Below are positions 16,514 through 53,956 of a stretch of DNA of 64,000 nt, piece by piece. How positions within the stretch are numbered: position 1 is the first letter of the stretch; each line of letters opens with the position of its first letter. The stretch spans positions 160,001 through 224,000 of the forward strand of contig CAWHWX010000016.1 in the NCBI GenBank assembly GCA_963833125.1, read 5' to 3'. The notes beneath the pieces were generated by a model. That model was given only the letters and a program-made list of their open reading frames with translations. It was not told the DNA's origin and made no database searches. The DNA is from Candidatus Bathyarchaeota archaeon (GTDB taxonomy: Archaea; Thermoproteota; Bathyarchaeia; 40CM-2-53-6). The translations under genes were made by a program, and so were the position numbers.

Positions 16514-16644
16514 TGGCGCCGCCGGCAGGGCTCGAACCTGCGACCAACGGGTGTCTGCCCGTTTAACAGCTTCAGCTCCTTCTTGCGAAGGATCCGCTGC
16601 TCCACCACTGAGCTGTCGTCTGCGCATTATGTGCATACGGCGGC
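16514..16644 (-). tRNA. tRNA-Asn(GTT) with three BHB/BHL introns at 8/9 (16615-16636), 30/31 (16571-16593) and 37/38 (16553-16563); CCA encoded
   Basis: Removing the three introns gives GCCGCCG TA GCTC AGTGGTG GAGC A GCGGG CT GTT AA CCCGT TGGTC GCAGG TTCGAGC CCTGC CGGCGGC G CCA. Each intron has a 4-bp helix flanked by 3-nt bulges. Confidence 0.92.
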
Positions 16645-16688
16645 TAGGGTATGCGTTCGGCGGCGTTCGCGCATTTCCGGTTGGCGCT

Positions 16689-52050: not shown

Positions 52051-53686
52051 ATGTCCTATTTGACAGGTCAACCCGTATACATATTGAAAGAAGGTTCAAC
52101 TCGTAACCGCGGCCACGATGCACAGCGGAGCAACATAACAGCTGCAATCATCGTTGCCGAAGTTGTCAAGACCACTCTTGGTCCGCGCGGAATGGACAAG
52201 ATGCTCGTCGACAGTTTAGGCGACGTAACCGTCACAAATGACGGCGCTACGGTATTGGACGAGGTGGACGTTCAAAATCCTGCCGCTAAGATGATAGTTG
52301 AGGTCGCGAAGACGCAGGATGATGAAGTAGGGGATGGAACCACAACTGCTGTTGTGCTTGCAGGTGGGTTACTAAAGCGTGCGCAGGATCTTCTCGACGA
52401 CGAAGTTCATCCGACTACAATTGTAGCGGGTTACAAGAAAGCCGCTGATAAGGCGATCTCGATTCTCGACTCGCTTTCTGAAGAAGTCAAGGCTGATGAT
52501 AAGGTGGCTTTGAAGAAAGTTGCCATGACCGCTATGCACAGTAAAGGTTTGGGCGGAGCACGTGAACACTTCGCGGATATCGCAATCGAAGCCGTGCAGC
52601 AAGTGAAGGAGAAACGAGGCGATTCTTGGTATGCTGACATAGACAATATTCAGCTGGTGAAGAAGGAAGGAAAGAGCCTGCTCGATACCCAGCTTGTTAG
52701 GGGAATTATTGTCGACAAGGAGGTTGTTCATCCGGGCATGCCGAAAGAGGTCAAGAACGCCAAGATCGCTCTGCTCGACGCGGCATTAGAGATTGAGAAA
52801 ACTGAGATTTCCGCCGAGATTCGAATCAACGACCCATCCCAGATGAAAGCATTTCTCGATGAAGAGACGCAGTATGATGAAGGAAATGGTTAGCAAGATT
52901 AAGGCTTCAGGCGCCAACGTGGTCCTCTGCCAGAAAGGAATCGACGACACAACACAACACTACCTAGCCAAGGAAGGAATGCTGGCTGTAAGAAGGATCA
53001 AGAAATCCGACATGGAAAAACTTGGGAGGGCAACTGGAGGCAGAATCGTAACAAACCTAGACGACCTCAAAGCCGGGGACCTAGGAAAAGCTGACCATGT
53101 CGAAGAAAGAAAGATTGGAGACGACAAGATGGTGTTCATAGAAGGATGCAAAGATCCAAGATCCGTCAGCGTACTGATCAGAGCGGGCCTCGAACGCTTA
53201 GTCGACGAAGCTGAAAGAGCATTGAAGGACGCTCTCTCAGTCGTAATCGACGTGGTTCAGAAGCCCAAAGTAGTAGTTGGCGGAGGCGCAATTGAGGCTG
53301 AACTCGCCAAGAGACTCAAGGAATATGCGAGCAAAGTGGGTGGACGCGAGCAACTAGCGATAGAAGCTTTCGCCGAAACGCTCGAAACCATTCCAAAGAC
53401 GCTGGCAGAAAACGCTGGCCTCGACCCCATCGATATCATGGTCGCCCTCCGATCAGCGCACGACAAGAAAGAGGGCGTAAACCAAGGCGTAGACGTATTC
53501 AAAGGCGGAGTGAAGGATATGAAGAAACAAGGAGTCGTAGAACCGGTTAGGGTTAAGGAACATGCGATCCGTTCGGCAGCAGAAGCCGCCTCAATGATCC
53601 TTAGAATCGACGATGTGATCGCCGCGGCAAAGCCACCACCGACTCCGCCACCAAGAGGCGGTGGCGGAGAGATGGGTGACTACTAA
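52051..53686 (+). CDS. ths: Thermosome (group II chaperonin) subunit; frameshift near 52870
   Basis: [31 protein letters not shown] and LRIDD. Confidence 0.96.
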
Positions 53687-53761
53687 AATCCCTTCTTTCC
53701 CCTCGTACGCACGCTTAAAATAGATTGTAACCGCGTTAGTCGGCTTGCTCCGGGCTTTAGG

Positions 53762-53888
53762 GCTCCGGTAGAAGCTTAAGCTACCGAATATAGCCCGGTC
53801 AAGTCGCGTGACGCCGAAAGTATGTTGGCCTCTCGAGTTATGGAGAGAGTCAGCGACGTCGCGGGTTCAAATCCCGCCCGGAGCACCA
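53762..53888 (+). tRNA. tRNA-Glu(CTC) with three BHB/BHL introns at 10/11 (53772-53788), 20b/21 (53802-53818) and 37/38 (53836-53847); CCA encoded
   Basis: Spliced sequence: GCTCCGG TA GTAT AGCCCGGTCAA GTAT G TTGGC CT CTC GA GTCAG CGACGTC GCGGG TTCAAAT CCCGC CCGGAGC A CCA. TATA (TTAAAA) at ~53715 and a T-tract after the gene. Confidence 0.9.
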
Positions 53889-53956
53889 CAAAATCTCTAT
53901 TTTTTCCAAATGGATTGAGTATGGTCAGTTCAGGGTTCGAGCCAGAGAAATTGTGG

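Follow-up and report, generated by a model that had tools for sequence, protein, structure and literature searches.

Archaeal tRNA genes can contain multiple non-canonical bulge-helix-bulge (BHB) introns, with a maximum of three in Thermoproteales (PMC4090602, PMC4033280) and about 2.2 introns per tRNA gene in some Asgard families (10.64898/2026.10.13.758758); here and below, statements on published work refer to the accessible parts of the cited sources. In both groups the introns are cut by a broad-specificity EndA, and standard annotators miss the interrupted genes. In the split tRNAs of Nanoarchaeum equitans, two transcripts are joined by a complementary leader and trailer, which EndA cuts off (PMC4090602, PMC4033280), and in bacterial precursor tRNAs RNase P is slowed when the 5′ leader pairs with the 3′ RCCA (PMC9433436). 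We analysed a 64,000-nt stretch of DNA from a Candidatus Bathyarchaeota archaeon (the window; contig CAWHWX010000016.1, positions 160,001 to 224,000; all positions below are those of the window) and found a tRNA-Glu(CUC) gene with three BHB introns, whose 5′ leader repeats the 5′ acceptor strand of the same gene. This leader copy is called L. We propose that L captures the 3′ acceptor strand, leaving the real 5′ strand available for the BHB of the first intron, located between tRNA positions 10 and 11 (10/11), the spare strand thus aiding splicing. We regard this reading as fairly probable.

The introns themselves resemble those of Thermoproteales and Asgard: they are short, lie at D-arm, D-loop and anticodon sites and place a 4-bp helix between 3-nt bulges. 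Genes with several non-canonical BHB introns are already well documented, and the triple-intron gene therefore adds a member rather than a new kind. Unlike the maximum of three stated in the accessible text of PMC4033280, however, Bathyarchaeia relatives of this gene have four introns. With regard to L, the nearest parallel is found in the split tRNAs of N. equitans, in which non-mature sequence likewise pairs, holds the pieces together and presents the BHB to EndA. In contrast to that system, a single transcript is involved here, the helper would sit on its own 3′ acceptor strand, and its removal would presumably fall to RNase P. Bacterial leader–RCCA pairing is similar in that a leader on the 3′ terminal region alters precursor processing; there the pairing extends the real acceptor stem, whereas here the leader would take the place of the 5′ strand and is linked to an intron. 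An acceptor-strand copy in a leader is not described in the accessible parts of PMC4090602 and PMC4033280 or in the literature reached by our searches, supplements and subscription papers lying outside their scope, and the accessible text of 10.64898/2026.10.13.758758, supplements aside, contains neither 'leader' nor 'decoy'. The literature search also found no tRNA-intron study for Bathyarchaeia.

The tRNA-Glu(CUC) gene occupies positions 53762-53888 on the plus strand and consists of four exons and three BHB introns, with the 3′ CCA encoded (Table 1). An earlier note on this DNA had read the locus as a triple-intron tRNA-Glu, and this was borne out in three ways. In-silico splicing gave an 81-nt product with a standard cloverleaf, ARAGORN called this product tRNA-Glu(ctc), and a BHB solver, which lists all intron candidates with a 4-bp central helix flanked by two 3-nt bulges, found 4/4 central pairs in each of the three introns. 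The automatic multi-intron solver, judged by ARAGORN, produced wrong short solutions for many genes and was trusted only if it gave a unique strict solution, as it did for the window gene and for the loci L004, L007 and L021 (loci are cited by our own numbers, L plus three digits), and the Asn, Leu, probable Trp and probable Cys genes described below were parsed by eye. When the unspliced gene was used as input, ARAGORN reported 0 genes in the window and the Rfam model missed the tRNA-Glu gene. A split or permuted tRNA gene was ruled out, all four exons being collinear within 127 nt. The gene is real and probably functional. In intron 1, the central helix (H) has 4/4 pairs and the inner hairpin (h′) has 4, the outer helix (h) has 0 contiguous pairs, and 5 bp of outer helix follow beyond a 1 × 2 loop. 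The central helix of this intron is built on tRNA bases 5-8 and, because the 10/11 BHB uses these bases, the acceptor stem is excluded while it is formed.

The leader copy is defined by its match to both ends of the tRNA. The first 7 nt of L, GCTCCGG (53747-53753), are identical to tRNA positions 1-7 and stand 8 nt before the real strand. Besides the 3′ acceptor strand, the complementarity of L takes in two T-stem bases. When flanking bases are included, the copy reads TGCTCCGGGC (53746-53755) and is complementary over 10 nt, without a mismatch, to the tRNA 3′ end, GCCCGGAGCA (53876-53885). Two segments of the leader are also complementary to the D-loop: CCGGGCT (53750-53756) fits AGCCCGG (53792-53798) at every base, and GGGCT (53760-53764) fits AGCCC (53792-53796). 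The statements of the earlier note on the introns, the leader repeat and these complementarities were all correct, and the TATA box that it placed at about 53715 was recovered there and is conserved in the orthologs. In ordinary tRNA genes of this genome, a TATA-like motif was located 29-39 nt upstream of the mature 5′ end (13/32, where a simple pattern matched). The distance from L to its TATA box is the same as that of an ordinary mature 5′ end, and L therefore lies at the expected transcript start. Judged by this promoter geometry, transcription most likely starts at about 53745-53747, at or next to 53747. Most tRNA genes of the genome encode the 3′ CCA, and the short TATA distance implies that ordinary precursors would be nearly leaderless.

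Partition functions of the Glu precursor with and without its leader were calculated with ViennaRNA at 37 °C. Without the leader, the probability of the central helix, P(H), was 0.004 and that of the acceptor stem was 0.995. With the native 15-nt leader the values were reversed, P(H) being 0.991 and the acceptor stem 0.000, and pairing of L with the 3′ strand reached 0.999. The minimum-energy fold placed L on the 3′ strand (9 bp) and GGGCU (53760-53764) on the D-loop AGCCC, with the central helix present. The native Glu value was matched by 0/28 leaders of ordinary genes (mean P(H) 0.154, maximum 0.946) and by 0/3 non-cognate leaders that carry a copy of their own. Among shuffled leaders, 2/60 matched the native value and the mean P(H) was 0.50; shuffling keeps the GC-rich letters and is a weak control, and natural leaders were used instead. 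In all four genes that were modelled, the cognate leader drove the acceptor-stem probability to 0.000. These model results support the suggestion of the earlier note that the leader may serve as a decoy for the acceptor strand when the real strand is sequestered.

We found that the copy is conserved among relatives. Twenty orthologous Glu genes were compared, 19 from the same genus and one from another family of the order; 18 rows were parsed, the window's own included, and parsing ended at the masked locus L019. The copy was kept upstream of the real 5′ strand in 20/20 orthologs as G[C/T]TC[C/T]GGG, and the distance from the first base of the TATA box to the G of the copy was 31-32 nt in 18/18 parsed rows. 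Between copy and real strand, the gap was 8-11 nt long, with a variable and unalignable sequence. The columns of L were conserved at ≥90%, and all changes were C to T, which retains G·U pairing with the invariant 3′ strand; there were three such cells among the 18 aligned sequences and one more in the unaligned L019. Neither the D-loop nor the 3′ strand ever varied, and G-1, the leader base next to the real strand, was retained in 19/20. The 10/11 intron occurred together with the copy in 18 of the 20 orthologs. The 20b/21 intron was present in 17/18 parsed rows, being absent in L007, and L019-L021 were seen by eye to have it as well. The RNAalifold consensus of the 18 intron-bearing orthologs contained the pairing of L with the 3′ strand (9 pairs), an outer helix GGCU/AGCC and the central helix, with 99.5% of cells paired in the 18-ortholog alignment. 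Both partners had changed in only one pair, which lies in the inner hairpin h′ of intron 1 and differed in three sequences. Among more distant archaea, 80 thermosome-linked loci were inspected and nine, all Bathyarchaeia, had a same-acceptor tRNA-Glu(CUC) in the 1.5-kb flank; the 10/11 intron and the copy were both absent from 9/9 of these genes beside the same thermosome gene.

Some further features of the Glu genes were observed. Four introns were found in Glu(CUC) of relatives, at 10/11, 20b/21, 37/38 and 59/60, with a unique strict solution for L004 and L021, and length parsing gave four inserts in 13/18 parsed rows (L002, L005 and L009-L018 among them). The 59/60 intron of relatives has the central helix UUCA/UGAA, with h′ 5 and h 5. 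A T-loop intron is common to most relatives, and the window gene is without one. The variable loop of the window tRNA-Glu is 7 nt long, CGACGTC (53854-53860), where 20/20 relatives have CGAC, with three extra nucleotides near 53858-53860.

The association of the copy with the acceptor/D junction was then evaluated over the whole genome. Forty distinct tRNA candidates, collected by a genome scan for a T-arm plus acceptor closure, were scored for a copy, defined as a Watson-Crick run of ≥7 nt complementary to the gene's own 3′ strand and discriminator at ≤45 nt upstream. A copy was present in 6/8 candidates with an interrupted acceptor/D junction, compared with 0/32 candidates in which this junction is contiguous (Fisher p = 7e-6). 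In the 32 contiguous-junction genes, no run of ≥7 nt was found within 45 nt upstream, and the best runs were 2-5 nt. The six copy-bearing candidates represent five genes, two being strain duplicates: Glu-CUC, Asn-GUU, Leu-CAG, probable Trp-CCA and probable Cys-GCA, the last three identified by eye. Their five copies are five different sequences, each matching the acceptor strand of its own gene; such gene-specific copies are the nearest available substitute for covariation. The two interrupted candidates without a copy were one probable non-tRNA and one real Leu gene on contig C32. The latter has a TATA-like motif ~70 nt upstream, implying a leader of ~40 nt.

Orthologs of the other copy-bearing genes were then compared. 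The tRNA-Asn(GUU) gene of the window scored 28.6 bits with the Rfam model, which is under the cut-off. An exact GCCGCCG copy 12-21 nt upstream occurred together with the 8/9 intron in 28/28 Asn orthologs of eight genera (the window's own included), and the 7-mer was still exact in some AT-rich genomes with unrelated, unalignable flanks. For probable tRNA-Trp, 21 of 25 loci could be parsed, of which 17/17 had both the copy and the 10/11 intron and 4/4 had neither; the four unparsed loci end at contig edges, and both features were visible in them by eye. For tRNA-Leu(CAG), 8/9 loci were parsed and 6/6 intron-bearing genes, in this case with an 8/9 intron, had the copy. The Leu(CAG) leader also contains CUGGCU, complementary to the D-loop AGCCAG, which appeared as (C/U)UGGCU in 6/6 intron-bearing genes and as CUGACU in the two intron-less ones. 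From tRNA-Glu and the 8/9 intron of tRNA-Asn, the earlier note had proposed a lineage-wide class of leader-assisted introns at the acceptor/D junction, and both the genome-wide counts and the Asn orthologs support such a class.

The probable tRNA-Trp(CCA) gene on contig C19 (L033/L144) is 233 nt long with several inserts. Its leader also has CCCUGUC, complementary to GACAGGG within the gene, and CUGUC is present in most orthologs of the genus.

Several observations weigh against a role of L in folding the precursor. L may fall outside the transcript. Among the four genes modelled, the gain of the BHB was clear only for Glu: the central helix of probable Trp reached 0.378, equalled by 4/28 natural leaders, that of Leu reached 0.179, equalled by 11/28, and that of Asn, which has one C·A mismatch, never formed in the model. 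After complete splicing, L still held the 3′ strand in the model (P = 1.000), so the real strand would need the help of tertiary structure, modifications or proteins to take over. Two Glu genes (L019 and L020) lack the 10/11 intron yet have the copy, with one wobble change in L019, and two Leu(CAG) genes (L174 and L177) lack an acceptor-proximal intron yet have it, in degenerate form in L177. No pair between L and the 3′ strand had changed on both sides among the 18 orthologs, because the 3′ strand is invariant. The Leu gene on contig C32 (L035, minus strand) has an 8/9 intron with acceptor bases 3-6 in the central helix and no copy. Furthermore, the candidate list was home-made and is incomplete, missing some tRNA genes, and the relatives are not independent, so the ortholog counts are descriptive. 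Taken as they stand, the sequences suggest that the copy accompanies the intron and can outlast it.

The persistence of L in the four intron-less orthologs would also be expected if L were a fossil or an element acting at the DNA level. On this view an ancestral 5′ end would have stayed at the promoter when a spacer and a second 5′ strand came into being, retained only as the sequence transcribed first or because decay is slow, and would take no part in RNA folding. The position of L fits this explanation, since its distance from the TATA box equals that of the mature 5′ end in ordinary genes. A neutral remnant would, however, be expected to decay like the spacer, and the Asn 7-mer was exact throughout its eight genera, AT-rich genomes with unalignable flanks included, while the changes in Glu were C to T only. 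No copy remained in the four intron-less probable Trp orthologs or in the nine intron-less distant Glu genes, and five tRNAs each have a copy sequence of their own. We consider the fossil explanation unlikely.

The complementarity of the leader to the D-loop offers a different role for L. In the mechanism that the earlier note named first, CCGGGCU (53750-53756) of the leader would base-pair with AGCCCGG of the D-loop and thereby provide the 10/11 BHB with its outer helix. All 7 nt of this match are complementary, both G53754 and C53755 are conserved, and in Leu(CAG) the complementarity of the leader to the D-loop is kept with the intron. Such a helix would nevertheless be parted from the BHB core by a 9 × 2 nt internal loop, and proximal GGGCU pairs with the same D-loop bases beside the core, the arrangement chosen by both the ensemble and RNAalifold. 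The helix requires the U at 53756 (T in the DNA), which is not conserved. The palindrome CCGG, common to the acceptor strand and the D-loop, by itself accounts for four of the seven pairs, and the GCUC that opens the copy is conserved though it would be idle here. In addition, the copies of Asn, probable Trp and probable Cys match the acceptor strand. The ensemble places the distal copy on the 3′ strand and GGGCU (53760-53764) on the D-loop, so that pairing of the distal copy with the D-loop is not supported and is very improbable. The broader idea that the leader contributes to the outer helix holds for the proximal leader, namely G-2 and G-1 in Glu and CUGGCU in Leu, and fails for the distal copy.

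A further possibility is that L is the true mature 5′ strand and that the spacer and the second copy are removed as a fourth, 15-nt intron. Both copies would yield an identical mature sequence, and L would then stand at the transcript start as in the nearly leaderless genes. A hand check, as distinct from a computed scan, found no BHB in any register: direct repeats make the two strands of a central helix identical (CUCC with CUCC), and the sole self-complementary register (CCGG) gives G8 C9 and not U8 A9. Changes in the length and sequence of the spacer have no compensating partner, and an RNase P RNA is present in the genome. This explanation is accordingly highly implausible. A chance repeat in a GC-rich leader, conceivable for a match of only 7-10 nt, is already refuted by its retention in 20/20 orthologs, with an equal match in 0/32 ordinary tRNA genes.

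These results favour capture of the 3′ acceptor strand by L, for which the following order of events is proposed. The transcript would begin with L, and the real 5′ strand would fold locally into the BHB, tRNA bases 1-3 and the leader bases G-1 and G-2 forming the outer helix on the D-loop. Once made, the 3′ strand would be taken by L over 9-10 bp; this pairing would keep the GC-rich acceptor stem from beating the 4-bp BHB helix and would also cover the 3′ end. From cutting until ligation by RtcB, the 25-nt 5′ piece, consisting of leader and exon 1, would stay tethered to the body of the tRNA. After splicing, the real strand would displace L and RNase P would trim the leader. We infer this pairing in vivo, its order and the hand-over to RNase P from the models and the comparisons above. 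The machinery that would be used is encoded in the genome, with two PF01974 EndA-domain matches (84.1 and 52.3 bits), an RtcB match (574 bits) and an RNase P RNA (178 bits). In contigs from three metatranscriptome runs and one DNA run, only unspliced relatives were found, some extending into the promoter region, and neither exon joints nor transcript ends were seen; contigs of this kind cannot show absence. Among the sequencing runs surveyed, none contained half of the sampled sequence words.

Acceptor-adjacent introns pose a folding problem, in that the bases of the tRNA's strongest helix are also needed for the splice signal. A conserved spare strand would be a simple gene-encoded solution and a new cis element in archaeal tRNA maturation. 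Whether a leader-encoded surrogate strand is a general and old archaeal cis-acting folding switch, which lets acceptor/D introns (~3/4 to 10/11) be spliced, keeps the tiny 5′ exon attached and forces splicing before 5′ trimming, is in our judgement evenly balanced. If true, L would represent an unpublished element of tRNA biogenesis and would explain how introns persist at sites where BHB and acceptor stem cannot form together. Processing would have a fixed order, with splicing first and trimming later, and the leader copy would offer annotators a signature for hidden acceptor-proximal introns.

Table 1. Features of the tRNA-Glu(CUC) and tRNA-Asn(GUU) loci in window coordinates
Feature	Position	Strand	Description
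TATA box, TTAAAATA	53715-53722	+	tRNA-Glu promoter; read in the sequence and kept in orthologs
Leader copy L, GCUCCGGGC	53747-53755	+	Proposed surrogate (decoy) acceptor strand
Variable spacer	53756-53761	+	G-2 and G-1 (53760-53761) lengthen the outer BHB helix
Exon 1	53762-53771	+	tRNA positions 1-10; real 5′ acceptor strand 53762-53768
Intron 1	53772-53788	+	17 nt, 10/11; H CGGU/ACCG, bulges AGA/AAU, inner hairpin AGC-UUAA-GCU
Exon 2	53789-53801	+	tRNA positions 11-20b; D-stem 5′ strand and D-loop
Intron 2	53802-53818	+	17 nt, 20b/21; H CGGU/GCCG 4/4, h′ 4
Exon 3	53819-53835	+	tRNA positions 21-37; anticodon CUC 53832-53834
Intron 3	53836-53847	+	12 nt, canonical 37/38; H CUCU/GGAG 4/4, backed by the anticodon stem; outer helix of 7 bp
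Exon 4	53848-53888	+	tRNA positions 38-76; 3′ acceptor strand 53878-53884, discriminator A 53885, CCA 53886-53888
T6 run	53900-53905	+	Likely transcription stop, as oligo-T runs serve as terminators in archaea
tRNA-Asn(GUU) gene	16514-16644	-	Three introns by eye: one at 8/9, the others in the anticodon arm
tRNA-Asn leader copy, GCCGCCG	16658-16664	-	13 nt before the real strand, 30 nt after AAATAAAG

The genome is 3.07 Mb in 39 contigs, with 88% completeness and 7% contamination. The Rfam tRNA model gave 19 matches genome-wide, 18 of them over the cut-off; with so few matches, many tRNA genes are evidently interrupted and missed by the standard model. Near-identical tRNA loci were present on contigs C12/C17, C19/C21 and C2/C3/C16, and this metagenome-assembled genome seems to mix two close strains, consistent with its 7% contamination. 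The tRNA-Glu gene lies directly downstream of a thermosome gene, and nearly all relatives of the thermosome protein are labelled as Bathyarchaeia or Bathyarchaeota metagenome-assembled genomes. The thermosome gene (Cpn60/TCP-1; 52051-53686, plus strand) is represented by two overlapping open reading frames, 52051-52893 (Pfam profile 1-239) and 52859-53686 (profile 236-489), which points to a frameshift near 52860-52893, either an assembly error or a broken gene.

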